DNA of 64,000 bases, from positions 1,216,001-1,280,000 of the forward strand of contig JBKBWQ010000001.1 of the NCBI GenBank assembly GCA_046314355.1, read 5' to 3'. The notes under the pieces are model-generated. The model was given only the letters and a program-made list of their open reading frames with translations, was not told the DNA's origin and made no database searches. Below, piece by piece: positions 14,054 to 59,922 of this stretch. Source of the DNA: Candidatus Altimarinota bacterium (GTDB taxonomy: Bacteria > Patescibacteriota > Gracilibacteria > 1-14-2-50-48-13). Made by a program: the position numbers and the translations under genes. The first letter of the stretch is position 1; each line of letters opens with the position of its first letter.

Positions 14054-14081
14054 TTGACAAATTATAGATTTTAATTATAAT
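14054..14081 (+). promoter_or_regulatory. Consensus sigma70 promoter
   Basis: TTGACA-16 bp-TATAAT upstream of the 14171 gene. Confidence 0.75.
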
Positions 14082-14170
14082 CCGGCAGTTCGATGAAGTA
14101 GGTGAGAATCTTATTACATTGAATAACAAAGAAAATAAACTAGCGCCTATATGGCAGAAGGAGAGAAAGT

Positions 14171-14701
14171 ATGAAAAGATTTTTTGTGACCGTATTAATG
14201 TCAGGTATCCTAAGTTCTTGTGCAAGTGCGAGTATGACAACTGTTAAACTATTGGACAGTCAAACTCTGCTTGTCTCCGTTACGGAGGTCGATAGCGCAA
14301 AAATTGGATTGGAAGTCTATAATGGTACAAAAGGGAAAATTAAAATTCCTGAGATTGTATTACAGAATAGAGGAACATCTGCTGACGCACATATTGGTAA
14401 AGTATCAGTATTTGTTGGGAATAAGATGTATGGTGCTCCTGTTACTTTCAAAAATGGTATAGCAAGTACCATAGGTGAGAAAGATGCATTGTCTATCCTA
14501 CCTGAGGAAATGGTTCGGCTAAGAATTGAAGTAGGATTTAATTCTGACCAGCCAATGCCTAGTACATTTTCTGCTGAAATTCCGGCTAACGGAATTAAGG
14601 TAAAAGATGAAACTGGTAACGATCTAAATATATCAGGTCTTCCAATAAAAACTCAAAAATTCAATCTTGTACGGGGCAAGACAGATAATCCCGCAAACTA
14701 A
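14171..14701 (+). CDS. Putative lipoprotein with an S-layer-type Ig-like domain
   Basis: Lipobox-like ILSSC; beta-rich domain resembling the C-terminal Ig domains of the giant protein; SD GAAGGAG upstream. Confidence 0.65.
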   Translation: MKRFFVTVLMSGILSSCASASMTTVKLLDSQTLLVSVTEVDSAKIGLEVYNGTKGKIKIPEIVLQNRGTSADAHIGKVSVFVGNKMYGAPVTFKNGIASTIGEKDALSILPEEMVRLRIEVGFNSDQPMPSTFSAEIPANGIKVKDETGNDLNISGLPIKTQKFNLVRGKTDNPAN

Positions 14702-14924
14702 ATAAAAATTATTAAACATCTACCCAGCTGAGCGCTGGGTTTTTTTGTTCTTGAGCACTATCTTAGTGTAACTTCACATTCTCAAGACAGAATCATCTAA
14801 TATTGCAATATAATTTATATGAGATACAATACACTGGACTTTTTGTATTTACTTATTGTTTGTGTCTAAGTATTCCCAGATTCAAATACGGGAATAGAAG
14901 CTAGACCGAATCATTTACCTCTCT

Positions 14925-17108
14925 ATGACATTTCTCACGCAGTTTCTAAACTTCTTTTTTCTCAATTCCTTTGTTTTCCTCTCATCCGTACTGCTTGCGA
15001 TCTATTTAAGTAACTACCGTATCAAGGACTGGGCAAAAGTACTGATCACTGTCTCTGTGATCTTCTATTCGCTCATTACTTTCTCCTCAGTGCTCCTTGG
15101 AATGTTCAAGGTGCTTTTTTTCTGGCCGCAGATGATTTTTCATTCTTTGCTCCTGATCACACTGCTTGCTACGGTAGGAAGAAGAATGCTCAAGGAATGG
15201 CATAGAATGGATATTTCTCCAGAAAGTAAACCTATAGACTGGTTTCTTTTTGCCGCGATATTTACACCGTTTCTCATTCTCGCATTTACGAGATTTTTCA
15301 ATGCGCTGTATCAGGTGCCTATTGAGTATGATAATCTTGCCTATCATCTGCCTTTTATGGTGGACTGGCTTCAAAATGGAAATCTTTGGAAAGTATATTA
15401 CAGTGCCTTTGCTGGACCTCTCGGATACTATCCAAGCAACTTTGAACTCCTTGATCTCTGGATTGCGCTTCCATTTCATAGTGATTTGATGATCAATCTC
15501 ATCAATATCCCTATATTTGTACTTTTGCCGCTGGTACTTTACAAAGTAGCACGTAATTTTGGTATTACAGGACATGGCTCACTTCTTGTGGTGATTCTCT
15601 TTCTGATGATGCCTGTAACTATGCGTCAGCTTGGTGTTCCGCTTGTGGACATCTATTTCTGTCTTACATTTCTCTGGGGACTTTATTACCTTCAGGAGTT
15701 CAGAAAGACTGGGCATCTCAATGAAGTATTTATTGCAGGACTAGCTCTTGGACTCTTTGCCGGTACAAAGTATCTGGGTATTGTGTATATAGTGCCTCTG
15801 GTGCTTATCTTCATGATTTTCCTTTTTTTCAGTTCAAAGAAAAAATTCAAAAGCCTTTGGTGGGGAAGCTTTATTCTTATCTCTGCGATGTTCCTAACAG
15901 GAAGCTTCTGGTATCTCCGTAACTGGATAGACACTGGCAATCCATTATTTCCTACAGATGTGGTGATTGGCGGACAGACTATTTTTAAAGGATATCTTGG
16001 TATTACGGATAATCTAGTACAGACCTCTCTTGTAAGTAATATTCCGTTGGGCTATTCCTTTGACTACTTCGCAGACCGCTTCTTTGTGATGGTAGGAGGG
16101 CAGTCATTTCTGTTCCTTGCGTGTTTTGTACTGCTTCTGATGATTATTATAGTAAAAGGAGTGTTTTCTCTTATCGCAAAGGATCTTGAGAAGAAAAAGA
16201 GAGATAGAATGAGATTTATTGCGTATGTGCTCGTAGTAGGTGCTATCCTCACCTACTTGATCGGATATTGGTTCTCTCCATACTCATTCAAAGATCTGAT
16301 CCCGAATGTGAGGTATGCGTTCATGTTTCTACTGCTTGCCTGTATTATGGTGGGTATTGTGGTGTCTGAGATACGGTTTCTGAGACCCTTTGTCTATCTT
16401 GCGGGCTTTGGTGTAGTGCTCTACAACTTTATCTACCTCATTCTCTTTCCGCCTCCATCTATTCTTACAAATGAAAAACTGCTTTTGGATTTTATGCAGT
16501 TAAAGGATTATCTGGCATATGTTATTGTCTTCATTCTTCTTCTCGCAGGTATTGGAGCATTCTTCACATTTCTTAGATTTACGCTTCGGGATAAAAAACT
16601 CCTCATTGTATGTGTTCTTCTTGGACTCAACACTGGAGCTCTTTCTTACATACTCTTTTTTAATACCGGGCAGATAAGAGAACAGGTAAGGACAAATCTT
16701 TACTACTCTTGGTATAATCAGAATCAGGAGTGGCTGAACCTTCTTGAGTCAGCGGAGTGGTTTAATAAAAATGCTCCGAAGGCAAATATTGCATACACAG
16801 GATTCAATTTTCACTACCCGCTTTTCGGTAGAAAGCTTGATAGAAAAGTAGATTATATTAATGTCAATGACTGTTCTGAGTGTACCTATAAGGATTTTAA
16901 AACAAGCACCACTTCTATTCGTTCGGATGCGGCATATCCAGCATGGGAGAGTAATCTAAGAAAATTCAATAAAGAGTACATTGTCGTGAAAAAGGGACAT
17001 CTTACTGACTCTATGGAAATGACATGGATACTCGGACAACCGAATGTATTTAAGGAGGTATTTAAAATAAATGATGTGATTATTTACAAGATAGAAAAGG
17101 GTGTGTAG
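14925..17108 (+). CDS. Polytopic GT-C-type glycosyltransferase (ArnT/PMT-like)
   Basis: Many TM helices; DNLAYHLP loop, GTKY, WYLRNWIDTGNPLFP, RY motif; soluble C-terminal domain. Confidence 0.75.
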   Translation: MTFLTQFLNFFFLNSFVFLSSVLLAIYLSNYRIKDWAKVLITVSVIFYSLITFSSVLLGMFKVLFFWPQMIFHSLLLITLLATVGRRMLKEWHRMDISPESKPIDWFLFAAIFTPFLILAFTRFFNALYQVPIEYDNLAYHLPFMVDWLQNGNLWKVYYSAFAGPLGYYPSNFELLDLWIALPFHSDLMINLINIPIFVLLPLVLYKVARNFGITGHGSLLVVILFLMMPVTMRQLGVPLVDIYFCLTFLWGLYYLQEFRKTGHLNEVFIAGLALGLFAGTKYLGIVYIVPLVLIFMIFLFFSSKKKFKSLWWGSFILISAMFLTGSFWYLRNWIDTGNPLFPTDVVIGGQTIFKGYLGITDNLVQTSLVSNIPLGYSFDYFADRFFVMVGGQSFLFLACFVLLLMIIIVKGVFSLIAKDLEKKKRDRMRFIAYVLVVGAILTYLIGYWFSPYSFKDLIPNVRYAFMFLLLACIMVGIVVSEIRFLRPFVYLAGFGVVLYNFIYLILFPPPSILTNEKLLLDFMQLKDYLAYVIVFILLLAGIGAFFTFLRFTLRDKKLLIVCVLLGLNTGALSYILFFNTGQIREQVRTNLYYSWYNQNQEWLNLLESAEWFNKNAPKANIAYTGFNFHYPLFGRKLDRKVDYINVNDCSECTYKDFKTSTTSIRSDAAYPAWESNLRKFNKEYIVVKKGHLTDSMEMTWILGQPNVFKEVFKINDVIIYKIEKGV

Positions 17109-23694: not shown

Positions 23695-23923
23695 TGCAAA
23701 AGTGATGGCTTAAGTACGGATACTATACTGGAAAATTTAATAAAGGCAAGAGAGCACAATACGTCGAGTTAAATAGTAACTTATATCGAATACTACATTG
23801 ATAGCCAACGTATAATCTATATTAGAAACAAAAGCATAAATATTTTAATTCTTTTTGACATTTTTCGAAACAAAATTAGAATCCTTCAAGTACAATTTTT
23901 GAAAATAGAAAGGTTATTCATAC

Positions 23924-24256
23924 GTGAATAATGAACAAACAAAAAAGTTGACAGCTTTGGTTGATGCAGTTGCTCTGAATGGTTGCGACGAACATGGATT
24001 AGGGTTAAGTTCATCTGAGTTCCTTGATTTGATCCAAAGTAATTCAGAGAAAGTAGTTCCTTTTCTTTCGGAAGATCAAGTGAAAGAACTATGTAAAGTT
24101 CTTAAACTGGAGTTTGAAGAATATACTTTCTTATATCAGGCTATACGAGACAAAGGGCGTCATAAAGACAAAAAAACTGAAGAAGACTCTTCAAATATAA
24201 TACAAATATCGAACATTAAGGGCATCACTAAGAAGGAGTTAAAAACGATGCATTAA
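23924..24256 (+). CDS. Orphan protein, degenerate XRE-like helix-turn-helix
   Basis: GLSSSEFLDLI..PFLSEDQVKELCKVLKL resembles XRE helices 3-5. Own promoter TTGACA-16-TAGAAT (23855-23882), AAAGG SD, GTG start, terminator 24268-24300. Confidence 0.55.
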   Translation: MNNEQTKKLTALVDAVALNGCDEHGLGLSSSEFLDLIQSNSEKVVPFLSEDQVKELCKVLKLEFEEYTFLYQAIRDKGRHKDKKTEEDSSNIIQISNIKGITKKELKTMH

Positions 24257-28155: not shown

Positions 28156-30087
28156 CTAGTCTATGAAAATAATAGCTTGGGTCTCTTTGATAAGCCTATA
28201 AGTAAGCTCCGCCATGTATCCTCGTCTGACTGATGCGGAGACGTCATTCTTTGTATAATCAGCATTGAATAGGCCGTACTGTTCTCCCTTATCAAGATAG
28301 ACCTGATACCATGCTCCGGAAGAATACTCTATTGCCTGAATATGGAATGATAAGAGAGATATTTTCAAAGCCTCTGGAAGTATGATGGTTTTTTCTCCGT
28401 GAAAGAGTCCATCAGAATATCCTTTAATAATTTCTTCTTCAACCGCACTGCATACATATTTTGCATACCAGGCATTGATATTTACATCGGGGAAGTACAC
28501 ATAGCTCCATCCGCGTTGTTTCTTGTCTGAAAGACAGCTCTCAACACCATTTTGATTTTCCTTGGAGGCTGATACAATAATCTTCAAAAATTCTGCACGG
28601 TTCAGAGAACTAAATGGCTTGAATGATCCGTCGCTATAACCGCTGAGGATATCGCGTTCTTTAAGATCATTTATAGACTGATAATACATATTTTCTTGAG
28701 TAACATCAGGAAAAGAGGTAATGCTTCGAATAGTGCCTGGGATTGCCTGCAGCTGCTCAACTCGTGTTTTGATCCCTGCATTTTGTGTGAGTATTCCAAC
28801 ATACTCTTTTAAAATATCCATAGTACGTGAATCATTCATTTCTAACCGGACATCATGTAGTGCATACCAGTTAGAGGTACCGGATGAATTTATTGTCAAT
28901 TTTTTATTCTCCAAAAAAGCACCAAATTCTGTAGGAGCTGCCCGCACCACATTCCCGATTGTGTTCCATTGGAAGTTGTATTGGAGAGGCGTATCAATAT
29001 ATCCTATAAGATTTTTTTCTTTAATATAAAAAACAATCTGATATCCGATAGCATTGCCTTCCTGCGTTAACTTATTGTAGTACCATCCAAATGCATCAAC
29101 TGCGGTATTCCCGGTATTAATTTTATGCGGCAATAGGTAGAAAGCACCATTGATCTGAGTATAAGGATTTTCTGCTCGTAGTACTTTGACTGGATGAGCT
29201 TGAAGATTCGTCTCTGTCAGTTCCTTTTCTCCATTAAAAAAACGTAAGGCATTCGTGACATGAGATACTGTTTCACTATTGTTTTTCCAGACTGCTTCTC
29301 TCTTTAGTAGAGGAGCGTAATCAAAGATCTGGATATCTACAGGATTTTTTGTGCCACTTAGTGCTGTTGTATTTGCCCTGAAAGAGGCTTGGAATAAATC
29401 TCCATTCATTACCATATCCCCGCAAACTTTATCTATAGAAAGATTTCCTACGATGAAGTCTCCATTTTTATTCATGAGTGCACAGCTGCTCCGTTGATTT
29501 GAGAGCTTCATATCTTGGGATAACTTGAAAGCATATCCGTTGGAGTAGATATTGTCACTAGGAGTTATAGAGTCCATGAGGTCATGAATCTCATTCACTT
29601 CTACTTCGAAAATCTTAACGATTTGCAGTGATTCATCTTTAAATTCAACAATCTTGTAGGATGTGATTACGCTTGTAAACGATTTTGGTTCAGTGGAATA
29701 ACCAGTGTAAGAAACCGGAGTAATGGAGAGTGGTATGAATTTCTGCCTATCATCAAAGGAAATAGTATCAGGTTCTTTTATGTTGAGAGAATCAAATGTA
29801 CCTTTTTGAGTGATATATATGCTAAATGGATTAAATTTATAACCATATTTTGAGATACATTCATTATCTTTGATGACTTGGACATCTAGTATATCTGTCT
29901 CACTCATAGACCTAGTCACGCCTAAGAGTACAAATTTCGTTCCAGATCCTGTAAACTCATTAACATTGATGATCTTTTCGCAGTAATCTATTGCCTGAGA
30001 ATTCTCAGGGATCACGTCTGCTTTCGCAAAAGGTGTACTAAGGAATACTGAAAAGAGAAGTGAGGCAAAAATGAGATGTTTTTTCAT
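28156..30087 (-). CDS. Secreted SLH-domain protein
   Basis: Signal peptide MKKHLIF..AKA; SLH motifs ILSGYSDGSF..NRAEF and IIKGYSDGLF. Confidence 0.85.
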   Translation of the reverse strand: MKKHLIFASLLFSVFLSTPFAKADVIPENSQAIDYCEKIINVNEFTGSGTKFVLLGVTRSMSETDILDVQVIKDNECISKYGYKFNPFSIYITQKGTFDSLNIKEPDTISFDDRQKFIPLSITPVSYTGYSTEPKSFTSVITSYKIVEFKDESLQIVKIFEVEVNEIHDLMDSITPSDNIYSNGYAFKLSQDMKLSNQRSSCALMNKNGDFIVGNLSIDKVCGDMVMNGDLFQASFRANTTALSGTKNPVDIQIFDYAPLLKREAVWKNNSETVSHVTNALRFFNGEKELTETNLQAHPVKVLRAENPYTQINGAFYLLPHKINTGNTAVDAFGWYYNKLTQEGNAIGYQIVFYIKEKNLIGYIDTPLQYNFQWNTIGNVVRAAPTEFGAFLENKKLTINSSGTSNWYALHDVRLEMNDSRTMDILKEYVGILTQNAGIKTRVEQLQAIPGTIRSITSFPDVTQENMYYQSINDLKERDILSGYSDGSFKPFSSLNRAEFLKIIVSASKENQNGVESCLSDKKQRGWSYVYFPDVNINAWYAKYVCSAVEEEIIKGYSDGLFHGEKTIILPEALKISLLSFHIQAIEYSSGAWYQVYLDKGEQYGLFNADYTKNDVSASVRRGYMAELTYRLIKETQAIIFID

Positions 30088-30213: not shown

Positions 30214-30591
30214 ATGACAGAGAGTATATCTATCTTTCCGTTTGGAAAAGGTACAAACAAAACAAAGATCTTTCTTCTCAAAACCAATGACGGTATGTGG
30301 TCTCCACTTATTGTCGAGTTTAAAGAGAAACAGCTAAGTGTGATCCAGAGAAAGGTGTATGAAGTTTTTGAATATGCTATTCAAACTGCGTTCATAGAAA
30401 ATAGTAACTTTCCTAACATTGGAAAATATCGATGTTACGAAATAGAAATCCCTTTGACTCAACACTCAAGGCTGGAAGGTGAATGGTTCGATAAAGATGA
30501 AATTATGAATCTTGACCTTGCATTGCCTTGGGCTGAATGGTGGAGAGAAAGAGCATTTCTTGAGCTTCAGGAAATACAAATGAAGAAGTAA
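30214..30591 (+). CDS. Orphan protein, possibly a degenerate Nudix fold
   Basis: KIFLLK..GMW..RKVYE..EGEWF pattern; strong SD GAGGAG; terminator 30600-30627. Confidence 0.55.
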   Translation: MTESISIFPFGKGTNKTKIFLLKTNDGMWSPLIVEFKEKQLSVIQRKVYEVFEYAIQTAFIENSNFPNIGKYRCYEIEIPLTQHSRLEGEWFDKDEIMNLDLALPWAEWWRERAFLELQEIQMKK

Positions 30592-33211: not shown

Positions 33212-33652
33212 TCATACCGCTGTTCTACTTTCCAGCAGTTCATTTATGTATTTGCAAAGTGTTGGCAGTTCAACCACACCTTTTTGGATGAATGTCATAT
33301 TGTTTTTATTTAACCACTCATCCAAGCTTTTCTTTGCACTACCGCTATAGACAATTACTTGGTAACCTTTCTTTAAAAGATTTTTAATACTTGTCTCTGT
33401 CGTATAGTGAAAGTGTTGATCCTGTAACAGATCTGATATATCCCAATCATGCAGAACCAGCAGAGGTTTCCCTGTAGCATTATGCACAGCATCCCACATC
33501 TCTTTCGTGACTGCTGATATAACGCTCAGCTCATTTTTAAAAGCTAGATTTATCGTTTTTTCGATAATTCTCCGGGCACTTCCTAGATTGTCATAATGAG
33601 AACTATCATCCATGAGAACAATTTCGTTCCCCTTGAATTCTATTTTGGTCAT
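33212..33652 (-). CDS. Stand-alone response-regulator receiver (CheY-like) domain protein
   Basis: IVLMDD acidic pocket, LVLHDWD phosphoacceptor, VIVYSG, FIQKG Lys; SD AGAGGT; TGA stop. Confidence 0.7.
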   Translation of the reverse strand: MTKIEFKGNEIVLMDDSSHYDNLGSARRIIEKTINLAFKNELSVISAVTKEMWDAVHNATGKPLLVLHDWDISDLLQDQHFHYTTETSIKNLLKKGYQVIVYSGSAKKSLDEWLNKNNMTFIQKGVVELPTLCKYINELLESRTAV

Positions 33653-33828: not shown

Positions 33829-35136
33829 ATGAAAAAGACGTTTACCTTACTCCTTCTTTTTGTTTTTCTTGGAAATACATCTGTAGCTTTGAATGCAAAT
33901 GCTTTTACTGAACTCCAGAAAGTAAGGGATTGGAATCAGAATTTTTCAGACATTGAAGGACATTGGGCAGAGAGAGAAATAAAGAATTTTTACGAATCTG
34001 GGATAGTAAGTGGTGATCAGGGTACTTTTTCTCCAGATCGGCCTATTACGAGAGCTGAGTTTGTAAAGCTCTTAACACTTTCTCTGAGAAATCATATCAA
34101 TCTTGTGCCGATTATCTCAGAAAAATCTGTAGAGTTCTTTGATGTCCTACCAAATGCCTGGTATGAGTACTCCCTGAAAGTATTAGTTCCTAGAAATATA
34201 ATAAAAGGGTATGAGGATGGTACATTTCGTCCAGAAGCATATGTGAATAGAGCTGAGGCTACCAAAGCTCTGGTCTTAGCATATGGAATATCAGAGGAAC
34301 AAATACAGGCTGATAAGATGTTAAAGAGTGGAATGGTCTTATTGAAGGATATCCAAACAACTGCGTGGTATGCTAAATACATTAATACTGCAATGAAGCT
34401 GAGCTTAATGTCTGGAAAAAATGATGCATTCTTTGGAGTAAGTGAGTATTTGACGAGAGCTGAAGCTGTCAGTATGCTGTATACTGCTACTTATCAAACT
34501 ATTTTCTTTTCAGATGATGATGTAAAGGACATGTCATTAGGCTATACGAGAGAACCAATAGAGCCCACAATAGTAGAACTTCAAGACAACACTTCTCCTG
34601 CTGGTCTGCATGTTGCTGGAAATGCTGATGCACCTTTCACCATGACTGTATTTACGGACTTTGAGTGTCCAGGCTGTACGTATTTCTATTTTGATGTGAC
34701 TAAGAATCTAAAAAAGGAATTTTTAGATACAGGTATTTTGAAACTCGTATATAAAGATTTTCCACTGATAAGTATGCATGAGCGTGCATTTGCTGCTGCT
34801 AATGCGCTTCATTGTGCAGATGGACAGGGAAATGCATCTGGAATGTATCAGTTGTTATATGAAAAAAATGCGAACTGGAAATATAATAATAATATGGCTG
34901 TAGCATTATTTGGATTTGCAGAGCAACTGGAGCTTGATAAAGAAGTGTTTAAAAAATGTGTACTAGGGGCAGAGGAAAGAGAAGCTGTCTTTGCTAATAT
35001 GCAAGATGGATATGCTCTGGAAATATCAGGAACACCTACAATCTTTCTATCAAAGACTGGTACGGGTATAACAATGGAAGATAAGGTAGGAATGCAATAT
35101 GATGCAATTCGAGAGAAGCTTCTGAATTATGAATAG
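33829..35136 (+). CDS. SLH-anchored DsbA/thioredoxin-family oxidoreductase
   Basis: Signal peptide; three SLH repeats (TRAEF, NRAEA, TRAEA); FTDFECPGC, YKDFPL, GTPT cis-Pro. Confidence 0.9.
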   Translation: MKKTFTLLLLFVFLGNTSVALNANAFTELQKVRDWNQNFSDIEGHWAEREIKNFYESGIVSGDQGTFSPDRPITRAEFVKLLTLSLRNHINLVPIISEKSVEFFDVLPNAWYEYSLKVLVPRNIIKGYEDGTFRPEAYVNRAEATKALVLAYGISEEQIQADKMLKSGMVLLKDIQTTAWYAKYINTAMKLSLMSGKNDAFFGVSEYLTRAEAVSMLYTATYQTIFFSDDDVKDMSLGYTREPIEPTIVELQDNTSPAGLHVAGNADAPFTMTVFTDFECPGCTYFYFDVTKNLKKEFLDTGILKLVYKDFPLISMHERAFAAANALHCADGQGNASGMYQLLYEKNANWKYNNNMAVALFGFAEQLELDKEVFKKCVLGAEEREAVFANMQDGYALEISGTPTIFLSKTGTGITMEDKVGMQYDAIREKLLNYE

Positions 35137-35188: not shown

Positions 35189-35371
35189 TTAAAGGTAGAT
35201 TCCAACTGGTTCGTCAGGATCAATAGGTGCTGGAGGATTTTTTGTATTTGTTACAAATCGTTCCATGCTTTCCAAGATGATAGCACGATTATCATCTGAA
35301 TTTTCCTTTTTTTCAAAAATTTCTCTCATGTTTTTATATGCTGCCTCTAAGCGATCGAGGTGTTGACACAT
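35189..35371 (-). CDS. Small orphan protein (60 aa)
   Basis: TTGAAAATAAAAGGAG-N8-ATG start; shares terminator 35147-35175. Confidence 0.55.
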   Translation of the reverse strand: MCQHLDRLEAAYKNMREIFEKKENSDDNRAIILESMERFVTNTKNPPAPIDPDEPVGIYL

Positions 35372-35460
35372 ACTGTTAACTCCTTTTATTTTCAATAATA
35401 ATTTTGTTTGTTCTGATTATAGGTAAATGTGGGGAAAGTCAAGGGGGCTGTGTATTGTTT

Positions 35461-39237: not shown

Positions 39238-39515
39238 GAGGAAAGAGAGAAATGTGAGTATCATAAAAGTATATCATACTCGTATTTGGCTATGCAAGAA
39301 TGTGGTGGTAGGAATGGGAAATTATTGAAGGGTGATATTTTTTTTGAAGTTGTTGAATATTTATCTTTCAATTCTTTTTAACGTTGACAAATTATAAATT
39401 AAGCTTATTTTATTAATAAGCTTAATCGCAACAAAGGGATACGTGACCACGTATCCCAGATCTTTAGGGTCTGGTGATTGAAGTGAATATGATATTTTGA
39501 AAATTTGGAGAAAAA

Positions 39516-40529
39516 ATGAGCAAAAAAGGTTTAAATTTACATCTACTTGATGATTTAATATTTGCAGGTCTGTATTCATGGTATACAGCACAGCTTGATA
39601 TTTATCATAAGATCGGATTTACTTCGATCCAAGATGGAAAGGTTGGAATTTTTGACCAATATGGCACTTTCAGACCGGTTCCGACTTTGGAAGAAATTCA
39701 TGCAGTAATAAATGAAAAGAAGGAAAATTTGGAACTGGAATATAAGCAATCACAAGGCTTCTCTAGATATATGCTTGTTCCTATTGGTCTTTCTAGTGAG
39801 AAGATGTACTCTACCTTAGTTGGATTGTATAGACACTATCAGAGAAAGGTTTCACTTTTTCAGGATGATAGAAAAAAGACTCCTTTGAAAATCACTCTCA
39901 CCCCTACAGGGAAAGAGAAAAAAAAGTATAACATGCATGCTTTCAGCAGATCGTTAACGATTAAAGAGGACCAAGTTTACTATTATCCAAAAGATCTTCG
40001 TCAAAACGATCCTGCATTATCGGGGGGTGTTCTAAAGGATACACTTCTTGAAAGTCAGCGCTTCCCAGGTTGGGAGATTCATATACTTCAGAAGGATACG
40101 AAGCTTCGTAGGAGAGGAACAGGAAAGACTATTAGTGATCGTCCTGAGTTAGATGGAGGTCTTAGTGCGGCGGATTGTTTAGATTTAATTAGTGACAGGA
40201 TTGAAAATCTTCCAGGAAAAGCCATTAGGGATAAAAACGGGAAACTCGTCTACCGACATGAAGTAGGAAGTACTTCAGAAGTTTGGATTGTTGAGGCTAT
40301 TATGAAACTTACTGAATACAAGAAAGTTCACGGCGATATTGAGAATAAAGATGATGCTGGATGTCTACACGTAGGAACTGCAATATTTTATCAAAATATA
40401 TATGGTAAAAATATTAATGTGACTTGTTCGCAAACGGATATTCACAGGGGTAGAATACTGTGTCTTGGTGAACATACTGAAGTGGATTATTCTGATTTAG
40501 CTCCCAGTACAACTGTAAAAGTTTGTTGA
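39516..40529 (+). CDS. Orphan protein, possible degenerate C-type-lectin (CLec/FGE-like) fold
   Basis: PTLEEI, QGFSRYMLVP, PGWEI, YRHEVGSTSEVW; own promoter TTGACA (39384), GGAG SD, TGA stop, terminator 40557-40590. Confidence 0.55.
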   Translation: MSKKGLNLHLLDDLIFAGLYSWYTAQLDIYHKIGFTSIQDGKVGIFDQYGTFRPVPTLEEIHAVINEKKENLELEYKQSQGFSRYMLVPIGLSSEKMYSTLVGLYRHYQRKVSLFQDDRKKTPLKITLTPTGKEKKKYNMHAFSRSLTIKEDQVYYYPKDLRQNDPALSGGVLKDTLLESQRFPGWEIHILQKDTKLRRRGTGKTISDRPELDGGLSAADCLDLISDRIENLPGKAIRDKNGKLVYRHEVGSTSEVWIVEAIMKLTEYKKVHGDIENKDDAGCLHVGTAIFYQNIYGKNINVTCSQTDIHRGRILCLGEHTEVDYSDLAPSTTVKVC

Positions 40530-40707: not shown

Positions 40708-42906
40708 ATGGACAAAATGCCTTCGTCTCCCCAGGACGATCAGAAACAGAAGATGATAAAGAATGCATCTATAGTAGGAGGGTTTATTGCGGTTACTCTT
40801 GCAGGATCCATATTATTCAGCGGAATGAGTGGATCAGTCTTTCAAGCAAGTCTTTTAGGCAGCACTACTCCAAAGCCATTTGATGGGACAGTCCTTCCTA
40901 TTCAGAAAACGGCAAATTGGGTAAAACTTACTAGTAGTCAGTACACAAATTTTAAGAATGGTTCATTTACCTATGAACAGGCTGGGGCAGTAAATCAGCT
41001 TATTGATATACCTAAATATGATTCGGCAGCTCTCGCTAATGATCCTGCTAAACTTAGCTGGAAAGGATCAGATCTCGATATCCGGAATACTCTTTTGACA
41101 TATGTGACTGCATATATGGGAGCATATACGAGTGGATCAGCACCTGCTATCGAAAATGCAGGAAGCCATTTGGCTGTTGATATCCGTGCTCCAAAAGGAA
41201 CTCCGATCTTCTCAATTGCTAACGGAAAAGTCACTAAAGTAAAAAATGATAAAACAGACGGAGGTGTAATAGTTATCGAATATTCAAATGTTCCATCTGT
41301 AGAGGATCCAAAGGTAACTACTACCTACTATGCAAGTTATCTCCATATGGATACGGTAGCAGTATCAGAGGGGCAGGTAGTAGATAAGGGAGCTCAGATT
41401 GGTACTGTAGGAAATACAGGTATTGCCACTACATATCATCTACATCTTCAGCTCGATAGAAAGGAAGCGCCATTCCATCCATACTGGCCATATACACTTA
41501 CAGAAGCTAAGGCAGCAGGTCTTGATTTCGTTACTGGTGTAGATAATGGGCTTGGTAAGGATAAGGGTATCCAATATACGGTTAATCCATATAAATGGAT
41601 CTACTCAAATCTTAATGGAACTTCTTCCACAAGTACTGGAACAACATCTACATCCTCTGGTGTAAGAAATGCTTCTACAAATACAGCGCCTGCCTCTACA
41701 GCAGGTGCTGCTCCTACTCTCAGCAAACTCCAGGTAAGTTCGACAGATACAAGTATTACTGCAGGGAATATTGCAACTATCACTGTGACGGCTCTTGATA
41801 CGACAGAGAAGCCTATAGATACTTTTACAACACCAGTAAGTATTTCTGCTTCTCAGGGAGCGAAAGGAGTACTCTCTACCCTCTCAGCATTTCAGAAAGG
41901 AACTGCAACTTTCACGTATAAGACTTCTGATACTGAGAATGTAGCATTTACTGTTGTAAGCGGATCTGTAAGCTCCTCTATCTCACTTTCTGTGACTGAT
42001 AGAATCAAGAATCCTGTGAAGTTTGCACTTGATTATAGTTCAGCAGGAACAGTGAATACTCCGATGGATATTCAGATTAAGGCTGTAGATGAAAATAATC
42101 AGCCGACTCTTGCGGGTCTCACAGATGCTATCATAGTGGGGATGGAAGGCGGAACAGGAAATTTTTCAAAGACTATCTTAGGCTTTGCTGACTTTAAAGA
42201 TGGTGTAGCAGTGGTAACGTTTACACCAAGTTCTGCGGGAACGTATACAATCACTGCTAAGGCAGGAAATCTTGCGGGAAGCGGACCTGTGATGACTGTA
42301 CCAAGTGATGCGGTTGCTCCTACTGGAGCGTTTAGCGACGTAACGGAGGCTACTGTTCATGGTAAGGCAATCCTTTATCTTAAGCAGAAAGGAATCATCG
42401 AGGGATATTCTGATGGTACTTTTAGACCTGAAGCTGATATCAATCGTGCGGAGGGTACAAAGGTAATTCTTGCAAGTCTTGGAAGCTCACCGCTTTCACC
42501 TCTTGAGCAGACATCATTTACTGATACTGCTGCATCAGACTGGTTCAGCGGCTGGGTAGAGCTAGGTAAGTCTCTTGGAGTACTTGCTGGAAACCCTGAT
42601 GGTACCTTTACTCCTGCGAGACAGGTAAATCTTGCAGAAGCACTTAAGATAGTACTTCTTGCAAATAAGGTGGATCTCACAAATGAAACGGTATTCGAGA
42701 AACCGTACAATGATGTAGAGATTGATTCATGGTTTGCAGTGTACTTCCAGTATGCAAAGAACAAGAATCTTCTTGAGGCGGACGCGGAGGGAAATATCCG
42801 TGCAGGCCATACCCTCACACGAGGTGAAGTGGCAGAGCTCATGTACCGGTTAGTTCGAATCCAGGAAACTAATTCGGAGACTTATTCAAACGCGATAGAC
42901 GCGTAA
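40708..42906 (+). CDS. M23 peptidase + Ig-like domains + SLH domains
   Basis: HLAVD (HxxxD), YLHM, HLH Zn motifs; Ig-like repeats; SLH GIIEGYSDGTF..NRAEG, TRGEV. Confidence 0.9.
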   Translation: MDKMPSSPQDDQKQKMIKNASIVGGFIAVTLAGSILFSGMSGSVFQASLLGSTTPKPFDGTVLPIQKTANWVKLTSSQYTNFKNGSFTYEQAGAVNQLIDIPKYDSAALANDPAKLSWKGSDLDIRNTLLTYVTAYMGAYTSGSAPAIENAGSHLAVDIRAPKGTPIFSIANGKVTKVKNDKTDGGVIVIEYSNVPSVEDPKVTTTYYASYLHMDTVAVSEGQVVDKGAQIGTVGNTGIATTYHLHLQLDRKEAPFHPYWPYTLTEAKAAGLDFVTGVDNGLGKDKGIQYTVNPYKWIYSNLNGTSSTSTGTTSTSSGVRNASTNTAPASTAGAAPTLSKLQVSSTDTSITAGNIATITVTALDTTEKPIDTFTTPVSISASQGAKGVLSTLSAFQKGTATFTYKTSDTENVAFTVVSGSVSSSISLSVTDRIKNPVKFALDYSSAGTVNTPMDIQIKAVDENNQPTLAGLTDAIIVGMEGGTGNFSKTILGFADFKDGVAVVTFTPSSAGTYTITAKAGNLAGSGPVMTVPSDAVAPTGAFSDVTEATVHGKAILYLKQKGIIEGYSDGTFRPEADINRAEGTKVILASLGSSPLSPLEQTSFTDTAASDWFSGWVELGKSLGVLAGNPDGTFTPARQVNLAEALKIVLLANKVDLTNETVFEKPYNDVEIDSWFAVYFQYAKNKNLLEADAEGNIRAGHTLTRGEVAELMYRLVRIQETNSETYSNAIDA

Positions 42907-45342: not shown

Positions 45343-45915
45343 ATGATAATAAGACTTATGAGACATGGGGATGCGCCTAAAGGTCAGGATGGGGAAAGGC
45401 ATCTTTCCATAGAACATAGAGCATTACTGGAAGCAGGTGAAGTAGATGTTGGTATGAAGGGGGAGAATAAGTTTATCTTGCATTCTCATACTGTAAGGAC
45501 ATTTGAAACAGCTGAGGCACTTGCGAAAGGTTTGGCTTTAAAAGATGGATCTTCATTGAACATAGGACGTACAGCTTTTTTAGGAAGTGATGAAACCTTA
45601 GCAAAGATGGAATCTTTCGAAGGCTTTGAAGAGATCTATAAAAGATACTACAAGCCTGGAGAGAGTTTCGAAAAGTATCTCAAGGCATTAGAGTACTATC
45701 CTGCTTTGAAAGCATATTACGAAGAACTCGTAGATACTGCTGGTGAAATTATTCAGGAAACTGTTGATAGCAGCATCATAGATGCGGGAATTATTTTTGT
45801 ATTTCACAGTACTCTAATTGAAGGAGTGATATGGAAGATAACAGGTTCAATTGTAAAATGCCTACCAGGTATGGGTCATTATTCTATTGATACGAACACA
45901 AAAAAGCTCATATAA
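45343..45915 (+). CDS. Histidine phosphatase superfamily protein (SixA-like)
   Basis: IRLMRHG, HS..VRTFETA, FVFH; SD AAGGAGG; promoter TTGACA at 45250. Confidence 0.75.
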   Translation: MIIRLMRHGDAPKGQDGERHLSIEHRALLEAGEVDVGMKGENKFILHSHTVRTFETAEALAKGLALKDGSSLNIGRTAFLGSDETLAKMESFEGFEEIYKRYYKPGESFEKYLKALEYYPALKAYYEELVDTAGEIIQETVDSSIIDAGIIFVFHSTLIEGVIWKITGSIVKCLPGMGHYSIDTNTKKLI

Positions 45916-46487: not shown

Positions 46488-46664
46488 TAAATTCAAAAAA
46501 TTGTAGGATATGGATCAATAGTATTGGATTATGGCGCGGATTGCAAATATTAAAAGAGCGAAATATAAATATTTAGTTTCTATGAAAAAAGAAATATTGA
46601 TATTAAGAAATATATTTGTAATATAACAATGTGTTATTTTGAAAATTAGGAAGGAAAAACAAAA

Positions 46665-47813
46665 ATGAAGTTAGATATACTTGATAAATATCTTGCGATT
46701 TGGGAACAGTTTATCTCTCATTATGAGTGTTATTTTGAGTTAATGGAGAAATATCAAAAATCTCCTGGAATCTTTAAAAAGATTCCTGATACAAATATTG
46801 ATCAATCTGCATTAAGAGCAATTAAAGCTCTTAATGTGCGAAAATCTCTTTTTTTCGGTTCGAAGCTGATTGACTATGCGAAGAACAGTCTATCAAAGGA
46901 ATATTATACTCATTATCATGAAAAACTTGGCCTACATGGACAGGGGAAACCAGTAACAATTGTGAGACAAATATTGGATGTTGTTCCAGATGTTGCATCA
47001 TGGTTTCTTCATTCGAAGAAGGTTTATAGTCTTTCTGGGAATTTTTTTGCTTTAATGTGTCATACTGATATTAAAGACTTTTTCTTATCAGATATCGTAT
47101 TTCCATTTGATAGCTACCTTATCGCACTACCGCTTTCGGTGCAGATTATGCAGGAACAAATTGAAATAAGTCATGTTTTATTTCAAAAATATCAACTTCT
47201 TGATGAATGGAGAATCCGAGTAGTTTTGCTGGGACCAACACTTATGAAGAAGCATGATCAGATTAAAGTTTTTGAAAAACGTTTTTCAAAAAGCTTTCAA
47301 AGTAATGATCCAACGATGTATCTCACTTATCTTGGGCAATGGATCAACGATCTCAGAATTCCTATGATTGACTTTGGAGTTGAACAGAATATCCATCTGG
47401 GAGGACTATATGATCTGATTGCGAAGGATGATAAAAATAGTGCAGATGTATTTCTGTTGGCATTTAAAGTAGCTCTTTACTTTATGTCCATGGATAATAA
47501 GACAGATGAAACGATTAAAGAGAATAAGGAACCTGCTGTTTTTTCTTTGAAAAACGGATCAATAAAAAATATACTTGTTGATCTCTTTGAAATTGATACG
47601 TCATACTCTATATCGCACTTTTCATCGAGTTCTTCGGAAAGTAAGAAAGGAGCAAGTATGATGGATCCTAGGTTTCGTAGAGGATATTTTCGTAGAAAAC
47701 CAGGTGAAGGCAAAAACCCAAATGCTGCAAAGGTGGTGCAAGTAAGACCAACCATTATAAATAAACATTTGCTCTCGGAAAAATCTCTGAAGATTTCCGA
47801 GCAGAAAATATAA
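46665..47813 (+). CDS. AcrVA2/FinQ-like protein (putative)
   Basis: W...KKVYSL..TD..IVFPFDSYLI core and C-terminal PRFRRGYFR..G..VRPTIIN resemble the AcrVA2-family PHxRRGHW..G..W.P.F.N motif (recalled from memory); SD AGGAAGGA. Confidence 0.55.
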   Translation: MKLDILDKYLAIWEQFISHYECYFELMEKYQKSPGIFKKIPDTNIDQSALRAIKALNVRKSLFFGSKLIDYAKNSLSKEYYTHYHEKLGLHGQGKPVTIVRQILDVVPDVASWFLHSKKVYSLSGNFFALMCHTDIKDFFLSDIVFPFDSYLIALPLSVQIMQEQIEISHVLFQKYQLLDEWRIRVVLLGPTLMKKHDQIKVFEKRFSKSFQSNDPTMYLTYLGQWINDLRIPMIDFGVEQNIHLGGLYDLIAKDDKNSADVFLLAFKVALYFMSMDNKTDETIKENKEPAVFSLKNGSIKNILVDLFEIDTSYSISHFSSSSSESKKGASMMDPRFRRGYFRRKPGEGKNPNAAKVVQVRPTIINKHLLSEKSLKISEQKI

Positions 47814-53602: not shown

Positions 53603-53604
53603 TG

Positions 53605-56897: not shown

Positions 56898-57254
56898 ATG
56901 AATTATTTTAGTAGAATGTCTGTTATGGCTGATAAAAGTACTTCTCATAGAGGCAGAGTAAGAAAGTTTGATAATAATCTTACTTATTTTGGTATGAAGC
57001 TTACTACTGACGAAAAAGAAAAAATTAAAAATCTTTCTCTTACTCTACATACAACGGCAACTCAGGCCGTACTTAAAGCTGTCGATATTGCCCTTGCCCA
57101 ATATGCTCATGATATTCCTACTGGCAGACGAGTTACTGCAGATGAGCTTTTATCAATGGATAAGGCGACACGAAATAAGGTGATACAGAGTCAAATGAAA
57201 TACGTTGATAAGGATGAATCTATTGAAGACGGATTTGATATTATTGATGATTAA
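56898..57254 (+). CDS. Putative antitoxin (RHH-like N-terminus)
   Basis: FGMKLTTDEKEKIK..TATQAVLKAV; acidic tail; immediately upstream of the MazF gene; start may be 56925. Confidence 0.65.
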   Translation: MNYFSRMSVMADKSTSHRGRVRKFDNNLTYFGMKLTTDEKEKIKNLSLTLHTTATQAVLKAVDIALAQYAHDIPTGRRVTADELLSMDKATRNKVIQSQMKYVDKDESIEDGFDIIDD

Positions 57255-57256
57255 TT

Positions 57257-57610
57257 ATGAAAGATATAAATCCTAAAAGAGGAGAAATATGGCTTGTCGA
57301 ATTCCAACCTAAGGTTGGAAGTGAGATTGAAAAAACTCGCCCTGCTGTGATAATAAATATTCCAGGTATTGTGAGTAGTACAAGAATAATTGTACCAATA
57401 CGTGAACAAAAAGAGCATCATAAAAAAGTATCTTTTTATGTACCGTTGGAACCTGGGAATTATAATGGTCTTAAAAAGAAAAGTACTATTGATTGCTTAC
57501 AGATAAAATCCTTTGATCTCCATAGATTTCAGAAGAGACTGGGAAAAATAACTACTGATCAGCTTGAAGAAATTACAAAGCTGATAGCTATAGAGGTTGG
57601 GTATATCTAA
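57257..57610 (+). CDS. mazF: PemK/MazF-family toxin
   Basis: PKRGEIWLVEF.P.VGSEIEKTRPAVII, IVP, GL.K.S.I...QI.S.D..RF..RLG. Confidence 0.92.
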   Translation: MKDINPKRGEIWLVEFQPKVGSEIEKTRPAVIINIPGIVSSTRIIVPIREQKEHHKKVSFYVPLEPGNYNGLKKKSTIDCLQIKSFDLHRFQKRLGKITTDQLEEITKLIAIEVGYI

Positions 57611-57613
57611 TAA

Positions 57614-58027
57614 CTACTTCTTTTCTCCATCCGGAAACAAAAACTTCACTACGATTAGACACATACCCACAATCTGCAGAAAATTCTCTCCAATCACCAG
57701 GCTTATAAATGTAGGATAGGCAGTAAAATCAATAATTCCGAAACCTATGAAAAATGTAATTACGAACTGGAAGAGAATCATTGCATAGAGTGCAATGACC
57801 AGATAGATAGACCATTTATTCCTTAGCTTAAAATATTCTTCACGTCCTTTTCTTTCAGCTTCCTTGTCTTTAATCTCTTGTTCAGAAAGCTCGCTTCTCG
57901 TGGGGAGACCTTCCAGGAGATTTTGAGAAAGACTATTCTCAGCGTGTTCCGTCACAAAATCCATCAGGCTTGAGAGGTGTTCTTTGCTTGTTTCTTCTGG
58001 TACAGGAGGAAGGATATTATCTGCCAT
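57614..58027 (-). CDS. 2-TM membrane protein coupled to the ImmA/IrrE gene
   Basis: Charged N-terminus, two TM helices, KFLFP end; start overlaps the upstream gene's stop. Confidence 0.7.
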   Translation of the reverse strand: MADNILPPVPEETSKEHLSSLMDFVTEHAENSLSQNLLEGLPTRSELSEQEIKDKEAERKGREEYFKLRNKWSIYLVIALYAMILFQFVITFFIGFGIIDFTAYPTFISLVIGENFLQIVGMCLIVVKFLFPDGEKK

Positions 58028-58511
58028 ATTCAATTTGTAAACGATAACCAATGACTTCAGGGGAGACTCCGAATATTTTTGCAATGGATGCTACATCCAG
58101 ATCCTTATAAGTATCCAGGAACTTTCTTGGGACTAAAAGATTGGCAGCAAAGGCATTTGCTTCTTTCTCAAGGGGATCTGTAGTGGATGCTCCGAGGGGT
58201 TTTCTATAGAGAATGGCATACTTATGGGGCTCATCCCCAAGCTCAGGCTGATGCAGTATCCAGTGACCGAGTTCATGAGCGATCGTAAATGCTTTTCTAT
58301 GATCCGGATCGGATTTGCTGATATACATGGTTTTGCTGCTGGGATCGATAAATCCGGCAACACTTGCATGTTCACCTATGAATTCGATCTCGACTAATGA
58401 TAGACCGTAGTTCTTGGCAATCTCAACAATATCTATGGGCGGAGTGCAGACATAGTTGTCTTCAATGATCGCCAGTGCCTTGTCTACAGCGTTTTGATAG
58501 TTTGGCTTCAT
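58017..58511 (-). CDS. ImmA/IrrE-family metallopeptidase
   Basis: PPIDI, FTIAHELGH (HExxH), EKEANAFAANLLVP, FGVS. Confidence 0.92.
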   Translation of the reverse strand: MKPNYQNAVDKALAIIEDNYVCTPPIDIVEIAKNYGLSLVEIEFIGEHASVAGFIDPSSKTMYISKSDPDHRKAFTIAHELGHWILHQPELGDEPHKYAILYRKPLGASTTDPLEKEANAFAANLLVPRKFLDTYKDLDVASIAKIFGVSPEVIGYRLQIEYGR

Positions 58512-58586
58512 AAAGGGAGGATTAATTCATCTCTATTATAAAACACCCGTGTATCATATTCAATGACTTTATTTATACTTTCAGTT

Positions 58587-59318
58587 TTATAGTACTTTCT
58601 TGATATCCGGTGTAAGCCCGAAGACAGTATTTCTAAAATTTTTGTATATATATTCCTGTTCTCCTTCTGGTGTTTCTATCACATTCATTATGTTTTTATG
58701 AGCTTCAATATATTCCATTTCTTTTTCTGCAAGTTCGAGACGTTCGATAAGTTCTTTTTTTGAAATGGGAGCTCTGTCTGTAATACGTTTTTCAAGCTTC
58801 TTAATACTTTCAGGAACAATAGCAACTATTTGAAGTCTATTTCTAAATTCAGACTTAAGAAAAACTTCAATTCCTGGAACATCCATTTCACGTAAGACAA
58901 AAGGTTTTCTCAGTTCTGTCTTTAAAATCCCATACTGTTTTCCTGCTCGTAAGGTAGGTGCAATAAACTCACCATTATCTTTACGTTCTTGAAACTCTTT
59001 TTCATCAACAAAATAGTATGTCTCTCCATTCTTTTCTCCAGGACGCATATCTCTCGTAGTCATTGAGAGGGCAAAATGTATTTTCGGCAAAAACAGCAGA
59101 CGTGTTTCATCGATAGAACAATCAGCATTATGAATCGGCTCAAATGTATCCTTATCTACAGCAACAGGCTTCTTATGGTACTTTGCAAGCTCGCCTATAT
59201 TTGTACCTTTCCCCGCTCCTGCAGGTCCCATGACAATAATGATCTTCTTTTCAGAATCATGCGGAGTTTGATCAATCTGAGTCTCAGATCCTACAAAACT
59301 GGTCTGCTTTGTATTCAT
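58587..59318 (-). CDS. gmk: Guanylate kinase
   Basis: GPAGAGKGT, SMTTRDMRPGE.NG.TYYFV, QYG, EMDV.G. Confidence 0.88.
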   Translation of the reverse strand: MNTKQTSFVGSETQIDQTPHDSEKKIIIVMGPAGAGKGTNIGELAKYHKKPVAVDKDTFEPIHNADCSIDETRLLFLPKIHFALSMTTRDMRPGEKNGETYYFVDEKEFQERKDNGEFIAPTLRAGKQYGILKTELRKPFVLREMDVPGIEVFLKSEFRNRLQIVAIVPESIKKLEKRITDRAPISKKELIERLELAEKEMEYIEAHKNIMNVIETPEGEQEYIYKNFRNTVFGLTPDIKKVL

Positions 59319-59559
59319 GTCCAAAAGAAAAAGTATATTTTTCCTATCCTACTATGTTTTAATGTAGAGTCAATAATAATCTATTCAATAGATGTGTCTC
59401 TTAGTGGAAAAGAATAAAAAGCTTAAATTGTGCTCCTCGCTAAGTTTGATCGCACTTTTTGGTTATTAGTCGTGTTAAAATAGATGTATAAAATTGACTA
59501 TTCTTATATTTATTATATATTGCTTGAAATAAAATTAAATATAACGAAGGAGAAAGAAA

Positions 59560-59922
59560 ATGTTTTATTATGCAATTTATGATAATAAAGAAAGAGAAGT
59601 GATGTGTGGTACGGTATCTGATGTACAACTCACGCAAAAAAAATCTGAAAAGTGTAAGGAATACGGTCTAGCAGATATTATCATTGTTACCTTCTCAGGA
59701 GGGGATAAGGTATTTATTCTTGATACAAACCATGCGTGTATCGGACGTGGTTCTTCTCTCGATGCTAAATTTGGACCTGTAAGTTATCAAGACATACAGT
59801 CATTCCTCTGGTTAGTTGTAAAAACTGAAATAAGACTAAAAAATATCAATATAAAAATTGACAGAGATGAAATACTTGAGGGAACCTTGGTTTTAAAATC
59901 ATTGCTCGCAAGAATAATTTAA
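59560..59922 (+). CDS. Orphan hypothetical protein
   Basis: 120-aa ORF with AAGGAG SD and upstream TTGACT; shares a terminator with nusA. Confidence 0.6.
   Translation: MFYYAIYDNKEREVMCGTVSDVQLTQKKSEKCKEYGLADIIIVTFSGGDKVFILDTNHACIGRGSSLDAKFGPVSYQDIQSFLWLVVKTEIRLKNINIKIDRDEILEGTLVLKSLLARII

Follow-up and report, generated by a model that had tools for sequence, protein, structure and literature searches.

How does a lineage that starts most of its genes without a Shine-Dalgarno (SD) sequence come to carry a scattered minority of genes with strong ones? The question is raised by a 64,000-nucleotide stretch of the genome of a Candidatus Altimarinota bacterium (GCA_046314355.1, here G000), which corresponds to positions 1216001-1280000 of its main contig C1 and is called the window in the following. 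An earlier note, made from the sequence alone, had pointed to about nine lone orphan genes with SD motifs that sit between SD-less core genes of this window. We confirmed that an SD-bearing minority exists amid SD-less genes, both in the window and genome-wide, and that its members form a discrete class of self-contained units of promoter, SD, open reading frame (ORF) and terminator, which makes up about 5% of genes and is nearly all non-conserved. At roughly even chances, we read these genes as young accessory cassettes that derive from the mobilome and reside in an SD-independent lineage.

The G000 assembly comprises 1.69 Mb in 28 contigs, with 38% GC and a completeness of 98%. Judged from its sequences, the class of this genome is apparently a Gracilibacteria/Absconditabacteria/Peregrinibacteria-like one within the candidate phyla radiation (CPR); the nearest named relatives of an 801-aa class I tRNA synthetase encoded in the window were found in Absconditabacteria (55%), Peribacteria (52%) and the Patescibacteria group (51%). 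The class comprises many families, with genome sizes of 0.7-2 Mb. For comparison we used a relative from the same family (G002; 1.27 Mb, 48% GC) as a whole genome, and 400-kb samples of two members of other families (G019 and G024).

SD sequences across the genome

Located 9 kb upstream of the window, the 16S rRNA gene terminates in ...GGATCACCTCCTTTCC. Inspection of this tail, proposed in the earlier note, thus showed an intact and canonical anti-SD. The 16S tail of G002 (GGATCACCTCCTTTC) also retains it, and CCUCC is present in both genomes. Genes were predicted with a gene finder written for this analysis, whose codon log-odds model was trained with long ORFs and which picks starts by coding score and start-codon type alone, blind to any ribosome-binding site (RBS). 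SD strength was scored as the energy of the duplex with the anti-SD at positions -20 to -3, and was termed strong at -8 kcal/mol or below and intermediate between -8 and -4 kcal/mol.

Strong SDs preceded 81 of 1396 genes, compared to 32, 45 and 55 in three control windows, whereas intermediate SDs preceded only 51 genes (182, 200 and 302 in the controls) and 916 genes showed zero pairing with the anti-SD (570, 467 and 374). Since intermediate pairing was depleted and a strong minority enriched, the distribution is bimodal and consists of general avoidance plus this minority. Enrichment of the strong class was 1.5-2.5 fold overall and 3-5 fold at energies of -11 kcal/mol or below (30 genes vs 6, 8 and 11), and SD motifs of at least 5 nt were found ahead of 77 genes vs 18 and 37 in controls. 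The SD cores ended 7-12 nt 5' of the ATG in 62 of 70 cases, and the energies of the cassette SDs spanned -8 to -15.7 kcal/mol. A larger SD class concealed by mis-called starts can be dismissed, as alternative in-frame starts of the other genes were no richer in SDs (114/2862, 4.0%) than internal codons (185/3910, 4.7%).

The earlier note had also proposed to compare SD strength with orphan status throughout the genome; the bimodality proved to be far from chance and the strong class to be mostly non-conserved. Among conserved (core) genes (n=757) there were 8 strong and 19 intermediate SDs, compared to 16-28 and 96-163 in controls, so that core genes are depleted of SD-like sequence to below background level. 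Non-conserved genes (n=598) had 64 strong SDs (controls 15-27) and 25 intermediate ones (controls 72-134). SD-bearing genes therefore represent about one tenth of the accessory genome, of which some 500 genes are SD-less. Leaders were rich in T and C, with 40-50% T at positions -20 to -8, 58% T at -1 and 5-11% G, and pyrimidine hexamers were 3-5 fold enriched in the leaders of both G000 and G002.

Architecture and products of the SD-led genes

The main contig carried 72 genes of the strong class, in the following termed SD-led, among 1355 genes, and these were compared with 1231 SD-less genes. One of the 72 is a spurious 55-codon ORF in the 23S rRNA gene (C1:1368571-1368738) with 87% identity in G002, which is to be dropped from the count. 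A strict TTGACN-N16-18-TANNNT promoter pattern lay ahead of 30/72 SD-led vs 82/1231 SD-less genes and, when only leading genes were regarded, ahead of 28/64 vs 72/766. TTGAC, usually in the form taTTGACAaatat, was located 57-117 nt upstream in 38 of the 72, ATTGAC was found for 21/72 vs 27/766 leading SD-less genes, and the -10 box of SD-led genes ended mostly 29-47 nt 5' of the ATG. An intrinsic terminator (hairpin plus T-run, up to about 95 nt past the stop) followed 62/72 SD-led genes, but only 337/1231 of the others; where the downstream spacer was at least 60 nt long, this amounted to 49/54 vs 214/617 (odds ratio 18, p 2e-16). The promoter of the 16S rRNA gene, TTGACT-N16-TAAGAT, and those of 4 of 37 tRNA genes follow the same pattern. 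The cassette promoters thus belong to a native type and stand out just by their nearness to consensus.

SD-led genes were dispersed along the whole chromosome and were rarely found inside operons (5/72 vs 301/1231). They encoded shorter proteins (median 175 aa vs 255 aa), had a lower GC content (0.359 vs 0.387), a lower codon score, a longer upstream spacer (172 nt vs 119 nt) and fewer paralogues (9/81 vs 394/1254). An N-terminal hydrophobic segment was equally common in both groups (16/72 vs 295/1231). One clear SD-led operon was observed at C1:1408036-1410913, where three genes in a row each have AGGAGG and a TAG stop. Its products include F420-ligase-like and archaeal-type AdoMet synthetase family proteins, and it is likely a multi-gene transfer.

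The 72 SD-led proteins matched 35 Pfam families, each with one protein. Our Pfam and PHROGs scans of these proteins and of 41 proteins from the small contigs described below return member counts per family, and several families overlap on one protein; going by the 35 single-protein families, most SD-led proteins appear to lack a Pfam family. The families present are accessory in type and include GNAT, HAD, NUDIX, RecX, sigma70_r4, the RNAP alpha CTD, M3 peptidase, archaeal-type AdoMet synthetase and F420-ligase-like families, among others. Several products have lipoprotein-type N-termini. A defence-island signature was rejected, as PADLOC matched just 3 families among the 72 proteins.

Conservation in the family and recurrence in the class

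Homologues in G002 (tblastn, E < 1e-5) were found for 8/72 SD-led genes vs 728/1231 SD-less genes. The contrast held in every length bin, e.g. with 1/15 vs 221/282 for proteins of 300-500 aa. Gene order is well kept between the two genomes, where 309 of 413 adjacent orthologue pairs remain adjacent, and 20 SD-led genes had syntenic flanks. At 13 of these 20 places fewer genes are present in G002, including 7 at which its flanks adjoin each other. G002 itself showed no SD-led class, as strong SDs preceded 24 of its genes, compared to 54 and 43 in controls.

A non-conserved SD-led minority was found again in samples of two further families of the class. In the sample of G019, 18/335 genes were SD-led, and 2/18 of these were conserved in G000 or G002 vs 139/287 of the SD-less genes (p 0.0025); in that of G024, 9/348 genes were SD-led and 0/9 were conserved vs 121/327 (p 0.03). 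Among 151 genomes of the class, the motif AAGGAG-N5-10-ATG showed a modest excess over a backward control (median ratio 1.39, range 0.53-3.25), and G000 had the third largest absolute excess of all (237 vs 147).

Genetic codes are mixed within the class. G000, G002 and G019 use table 11, while G024 (25% GC) reads TGA as sense, since its coding density rises from 0.18 under table 11 to 0.83 with TGA open. For G000, genetic code 25 (TGA = Gly) was ruled out by a coding density of 0.87 under table 11, by the absence of tRNA(UCA) among its 39 tRNAs and by the presence of two RF-1-domain genes; TGA accounts for 5-6% of its stops.

Codon usage, small contigs and mobility

SD-led genes also differed from the SD-less part of the non-conserved genes, with a lower GC content (0.360 vs 0.375, p 0.014) and a lower codon score (p 0.006). 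Besides the chromosome, the bin contains 27 small contigs (C2-C28) that encode phage families: portal, head protease, HNH, RNR, primase/helicase, RuvC/RusA, Mu gp36 and resolvase. These contigs were rich in SDs, with 9 strong and 9 intermediate ones among 41 genes vs 5.3% strong on the chromosome. When synonymous codon usage was scored against that of the small contigs, the median log-likelihood ratio was -0.009 for SD-led genes, -0.046 for SD-less non-conserved genes and -0.078 for core genes (p 9e-10). The SD-led genes are thus the chromosomal class closest to the small contigs and the least host-like in synonymous codon usage. A pool of mobile genes with generic signals is thereby indicated as their possible source.

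The absence of integrases from the window, where the earlier note had seen neither integrase nor insertion sequence (IS) nearby, was borne out. Genome-wide, three tyrosine recombinases were located at 322 kb and 1068 kb of C1, and no rve transposase was found. A search of the flanks of the nine window cassettes for shared direct or inverted terminal repeats gave only terminator hairpins and chance matches. A crude CRISPR scan of all contigs, based on exact 22-mers present in at least 3 copies with a spacing of 50-90, revealed no array, so that no spacer link between the chromosome and the small contigs was possible.

rpsU and the state of the ribosome

The strongest SD of the genome was found outside the window ahead of rpsU (C1:435210-435419, minus strand), which encodes the 69-aa ribosomal protein bS21 and is too short for our gene finder. 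It is preceded by GAAAGGAGGTGAaaatATG and has the extended perfect SD GAAAGGAGGTGA 4 nt before the ATG (-18.7 kcal/mol). The rpsU gene of G002 likewise has the strongest SD of its genome (GAAAGGAGGTGAtgatATG, -19.0 kcal/mol), and 15 of 30 S21 loci of the class had an SD of -11 kcal/mol or below, mostly with the same extended motif. At E <= 0.001, 102 of the 151 class genomes gave no S21 match. Signature residues of anti-SD sequestration in Bacteroidia are Tyr54 of bS21, along with a less basic C-terminus, Phe50/Asn56 of bS18 and the C-terminal helix of bS6. The bS21 of G000 has Tyr57-Tyr58 in its C-terminal part, which is still rich in Lys and Arg; a search against PDB gave weak S21 matches, none of which could be assigned to Flavobacterium johnsoniae. 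An SD as extended as that of rpsU also precedes a 103-aa orphan gene of G002 (C3:27107-27418, plus strand; TTTGAAAGGAGGTGA, -18.7 kcal/mol), which has no Pfam family and no orthologue in G000.

Passages of earlier studies describe that in Flavobacteriales bS21, bS18 and bS6 hide the anti-SD and that bS21-free ribosomes translate rpsU (PMC7797042, PMC9976891, PMC13000453). According to passages of two of them, rpsU of F. johnsoniae is autoregulated through its extended SD, and a response to the loss of bS21 was confined to an extended SD of about -20 kcal/mol (PMC7797042, PMC9976891). As in Flavobacteriales, an extended SD ahead of rpsU would account for the retention of the anti-SD in an SD-less lineage. 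A search of a full-text library found no paper combining bS21, Patescibacteria and Shine-Dalgarno, and the passages on Shine-Dalgarno and Gracilibacteria in PMC9297842 and PMC6851277 do not treat such a pattern.

The nine cassettes of the window

All nine genes named in the earlier note bear the SD-like motifs given for them, 6-12 nt ahead of the start, and the other approximately 40 genes of the window have G-poor, T/C-rich leaders as described there (Table 1). By our thresholds five of the nine are strong (cassettes 1, 3, 5, 8 and 9; -8.1 to -9.7 kcal/mol) and three intermediate (cassettes 2, 4 and 6), while cassette 7 was given a mis-start at 45358 by the gene finder. The claim that most have their own promoter and terminator stood in full for the terminator (hairpin plus T-run, score of -10 or below in 9/9), but the strict promoter pattern was present in only 4/9. 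Both TGA stops of the window fall in this set, as had been noted. Genome-wide, however, TGA ended 9/72 SD-led vs 77/1231 SD-less genes (Fisher p=0.049; p=0.12 vs non-conserved SD-less genes), and given this weak enrichment no argument was built on TGA stops. None of the nine had a tblastn match in G002.

Table 1. SD-bearing cassettes of the window, with positions counted from its first nucleotide and SD energies in kcal/mol.
Cassette	Position	Strand	Promoter	SD	Reading frame	Terminator (score)	SD energy	Remarks
1	14054..14701	+	TTGACA 14054-14059, promoter pattern	GAAGGAG 14157-14163	14171-14701, 176 aa, TAA	terminator-like hairpin (-12.1)	-9.7	lipoprotein-like N-terminus; no Pfam family
2	23924..24256	+	promoter pattern	AAAGG, weak	110 aa, GTG start	yes (-15.0)	-6.4	Pfam DUF6694 below threshold only
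3	30214..30591	+		GAGGAG	125 aa	yes (-15.6)	-9.2	no Pfam family; AlphaFold2 model with pLDDT 41, unusable
4	33212..33652	-		AGAGGT	146 aa, TGA	yes (-10.7)	-7.2	see text
5	35189..35371	-		AAGGAG after TTGAAAAT	60 aa	yes (-10.8)	-8.8	
6	39516..40529	+	promoter pattern	GGAG after TTGAAAAT	337 aa, TGA	yes (-15.8)	-6.4	see text
7	45343..45915	+		AAGGAGG	190 aa			see text
8	46665..47813	+		AGGAAGGA after TTGAAAAT	382 aa	yes		see text
9	59560..59922	+	TTGACT, promoter pattern	AAGGAG	120 aa	strong (-22.7)	-9.6	no Pfam family

The motif TTGAAAAT was observed directly 5' of the SD in four of the nine cassettes (23905-23912, 35383-35390 on the minus strand, 39496-39503 and 46642-46649) and also before other SD-led genes (e.g. 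C1:28039, 292709 and 1529595). Its position would suit a -10 region or an operator.

The functional labels of the earlier note held in part, although none of the nine proteins reached a Pfam cut-off. In the ESM Atlas, the protein of cassette 8 gave an AcrVA2-like lead (PF26125; 0.98, 28/30, TM-score 0.58) with many viral matches, and that of cassette 7 fell to SixA-like histidine-phosphatase clusters (His_Phos_1; 0.96, 30/30, TM-score 0.76) with no Pfam match at E <= 0.01. Evidence for a receiver domain in cassette 4 was weak. Its single-sequence AlphaFold2 model was alpha/beta with low confidence (pLDDT 58), and Foldseek gave no match at E <= 0.001 and CheY-like ones at E >= 0.012. For the protein of cassette 6, a word-indexed search of 5.8e9 proteins found only the protein itself, while a full HMMER search gave 169 distant matches, the best at 40% identity; among ten of these that were scanned, none reached a Pfam cut-off over the region matched by the query. 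One homologue bears an N-terminal AAA_5 domain outside this region. The protein of cassette 8 had a single homologue (59% identity) among 5.8 billion proteins. Cassette 8 lies within a two-gene insertion of 2.5 kb, whose flanking genes have orthologues in G002 that overlap by 4 bp. The proteins of cassettes 6, 7 and 8 are real, highly divergent proteins.

Other genes of the window were also observed. An 877-aa TrwB/VirD4-like type IV coupling protein (TrwB_AAD_bind, TraG-D_C; 36604-39237, minus strand) is SD-less and has a tblastn match in G002. Two adjoining small SD-less genes lie at 56898-57610 (plus strand); the second (57257-57610) encodes a PemK/MazF-type toxin (E 7e-23) and the first presumably the antitoxin. 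Envelope proteins with SLH domains are encoded at 28156-30087 (minus strand), 33829-35136 (plus strand) and 40708-42906 (plus strand), one of them with a DsbA-like thioredoxin domain and one with an M23 peptidase. At its start, the window cuts into a giant ORF (1-8070), which is 2832 aa long in the genome.

Origin and translation of the SD-led genes

In the reading that we favour, native genes of the class would start without SD pairing on G-poor, pyrimidine-rich leaders, despite the intact anti-SD of the 16S rRNA. About 5% of the genes of G000 would be autonomous expression units, each consisting of a near-consensus sigma-70 promoter, a leader of 25-40 nt, a strong SD 7-12 nt before the ATG, a short and usually ORFan reading frame and an intrinsic terminator. 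These units might represent the youngest and least ameliorated layer of laterally acquired accessory genes, which would stem from phages or plasmids, as a pool of mobile genes dependent on generic bacterial signals, would have been inserted one by one between housekeeping genes, and would be translated by the cell's own ribosomes via pairing of SD and anti-SD. It is their lateral origin, recency and donor pool and the actual use of the SDs that we infer here.

The first of two options offered in the earlier note, a steady inflow of single-gene cassettes from SD-using donors, agrees with this reading in so far as the genes are non-conserved, lie at insertion sites, are AT-rich and deviant in codon usage, and form complete units. 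It fell short in that no SD-using donor was found and that the insertion profile equals that of SD-less accessory genes. Several observations speak against a recent import. SD-less non-conserved genes had the same insertion profile as SD-led ones (73/109 vs 13/20), so that presence or absence does not set the latter apart, and shared proteins of G000 and G002 have a median identity of only about 44%, at which fast-evolving native genes would score as non-conserved, too. The rarity of intermediate SDs among non-conserved genes indicates two discrete states rather than a continuum of decay and suggests that the SDs are kept by selection. The small contigs may not be from a phage of this organism, and the codon shift could stem from weak codon bias alone. 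No donor was found for the two orphans searched among 5.8e9 proteins, which gave no close homologue or one at 59% identity; the protein of cassette 8 was present in 0/30 genomes of relatives and had no relative in viral contigs or JGI metagenome contigs. Integrases, IS elements and shared flanking repeats are lacking beside the cassettes, and matches to PADLOC and PHROGs among the SD-led proteins were few (for PHROGs 11 families, none of them structural).

The main rival holds that the SD-led genes are a native translational class under selection, i.e. a regulon preferentially translated by a bS21-free subset of the cell's own ribosomes. Together with bS18 and bS6, bS21 would mask the anti-SD, and the cassettes would be switched on when bS21 is scarce, as in bursts of ribosome biogenesis, under stress or at a certain life stage. 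We consider this rather unlikely. It draws on the top-ranking SD of rpsU in G000 and also in G002, which is otherwise without an SD-led class, on the strong SDs at half of the S21 loci of the class, which mirror the autoregulation of rpsU described in passages on F. johnsoniae (PMC7797042, PMC9976891), on the gap that separates strong from weak SDs in accessory genes and suggests selection on the SD, and on the purging of SD-like sequence from core genes. However, an SD-led minority exists in G019 although rpsU has no SD there, and in G024, where no S21 was detected, and among the 151 class genomes, whose kin are not independent, S21 detection showed no relation to the excess of the SD motif in a descriptive comparison (p 0.24). 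The cassette SDs are well below the approximately -20 kcal/mol found effective in passages on F. johnsoniae, the C-terminal part of bS21 is still basic, and the leaders are pyrimidine-rich, unlike the A-rich ones of Bacteroidia. Moreover, a regulon that is old and well integrated would hardly be expected to show the least host-like codon usage. Recent acquisition and an effect of the ribosome state can overlap. One combined view, which we regard as improbable and as a bolder step than the regulon itself, is that the anti-SD is kept mainly as a switch, with complete ribosomes ignoring SDs and bS21-free ones reading them. Here rpsU would be the conserved sensor, convergent with that of Bacteroidota, and the SD cassettes a gated compartment. 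Under such 'xenogeneic gating', possibly exploited by phages, genes that are newly acquired or mobile, such as those for anti-defence, effectors and small regulators, would have strong promoters, but would be translated only when the pool of bS21-free ribosomes rises.

The second option of the earlier note, that the cassettes are delivered as DNA or RNA to a host or prey cell and read by the machinery of the partner, e.g. through the type IV coupling-protein system of the window, found no support, and we give it very little credence. The generic signals, which most of the genome's own genes do without, the coupling protein at 36604-39237 and the description of relatives of the class as episymbionts or predators could be taken in its favour. 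Yet the genome's own rpsU has the strongest SD, and the 16S rRNA gene with its TTGAC-type promoter, the 82 SD-less genes and the 4/37 tRNA genes share the promoter pattern, which shows the cassette signals to be native. Several lipoprotein-type N-termini of SD-led products suit the own envelope, the repeat search of the nine window cassettes revealed no transfer origin or shared flanking sequence, and an AcrVA2-like product fits a mobile element that acts in the same cell. A milder form of this option, a different, bS21-free state of the own ribosome, has to be reckoned with in view of the extended SD ahead of rpsU. Equally slight are the chances that the class is an artefact of chance SD-like motifs, mis-called starts or spurious ORFs. 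It does include the false ORF in the 23S rRNA gene, the gene finder is home-made and three of the nine named genes are just intermediate. Starts were nonetheless chosen blind to the RBS and the strong SDs still came out enriched and tightly spaced; promoters, terminators, conservation and codon usage each set the class apart independently, and two of its products (cassettes 8 and 7) give confident fold or family leads.

SD-poor translation has, to our knowledge, been well studied only in Bacteroidota. A CPR-type class shares the hallmark of that phylum, in that the anti-SD is intact, core genes lack SDs and rpsU has an extended one, and the sharply separated SD-led minority consists here of the non-conserved, self-contained genes. 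If these are recent imports, the youngest accessory layer of such genomes could be marked cheaply and without alignment by SD status, and gene callers that train a single RBS model would have to be used with caution. If the SDs are selected, uncultivated bacteria might run two translation regimes per cell, possibly set by ribosome composition.

Comparison with known systems

Phage morons are accessory genes that form autonomous units, each with a promoter and a terminator of its own. The cassettes resemble them as single ORFs with both signals, of atypical composition, absent from relatives and often of an anti-defence or accessory kind. They differ from morons by their location between chromosomal housekeeping genes outside of prophages, with no structural genes, integrases or attachment repeats beside them. 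Integron cassettes are promoterless, have attC sites and are arrayed next to an integrase. They are likewise single-gene units added to a genome, but the units described here have their own promoters, no shared repeats around those of the window and no integrase nearby, and are scattered.

The SD-scarcity of SR1 and Peribacter was already known, as passages of PMC10783764 tabulate an SD use of 2-7% for SR1 genomes and 7% for Peribacter riflensis. These passages contain nothing on which genes keep an SD, on rpsU in SR1 or Peribacter, or on cassette architecture. They file these organisms as lacking CCUCC, which is present in G000 and G002. The tabulated values agree with the low class-wide excess of the AAGGAG motif reported above.

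The closest likeness is to Bacteroidia, with which G000 shares the canonical 16S tail, the nearly complete absence of SDs from conserved genes (8 strong of 757), and the extended near-perfect SD of rpsU that was found in G000, in G002 and at about half of the 30 class loci. The phylum is a different one and the leaders are pyrimidine-rich and G-poor, compared to A-rich and Kozak-like in Bacteroidia, and many members of the class have no detectable S21. Finally, F. johnsoniae is reported in passages of PMC7797042 and PMC9976891 to have essentially one SD gene, whereas G000 has about 70 more, with moderate SDs.

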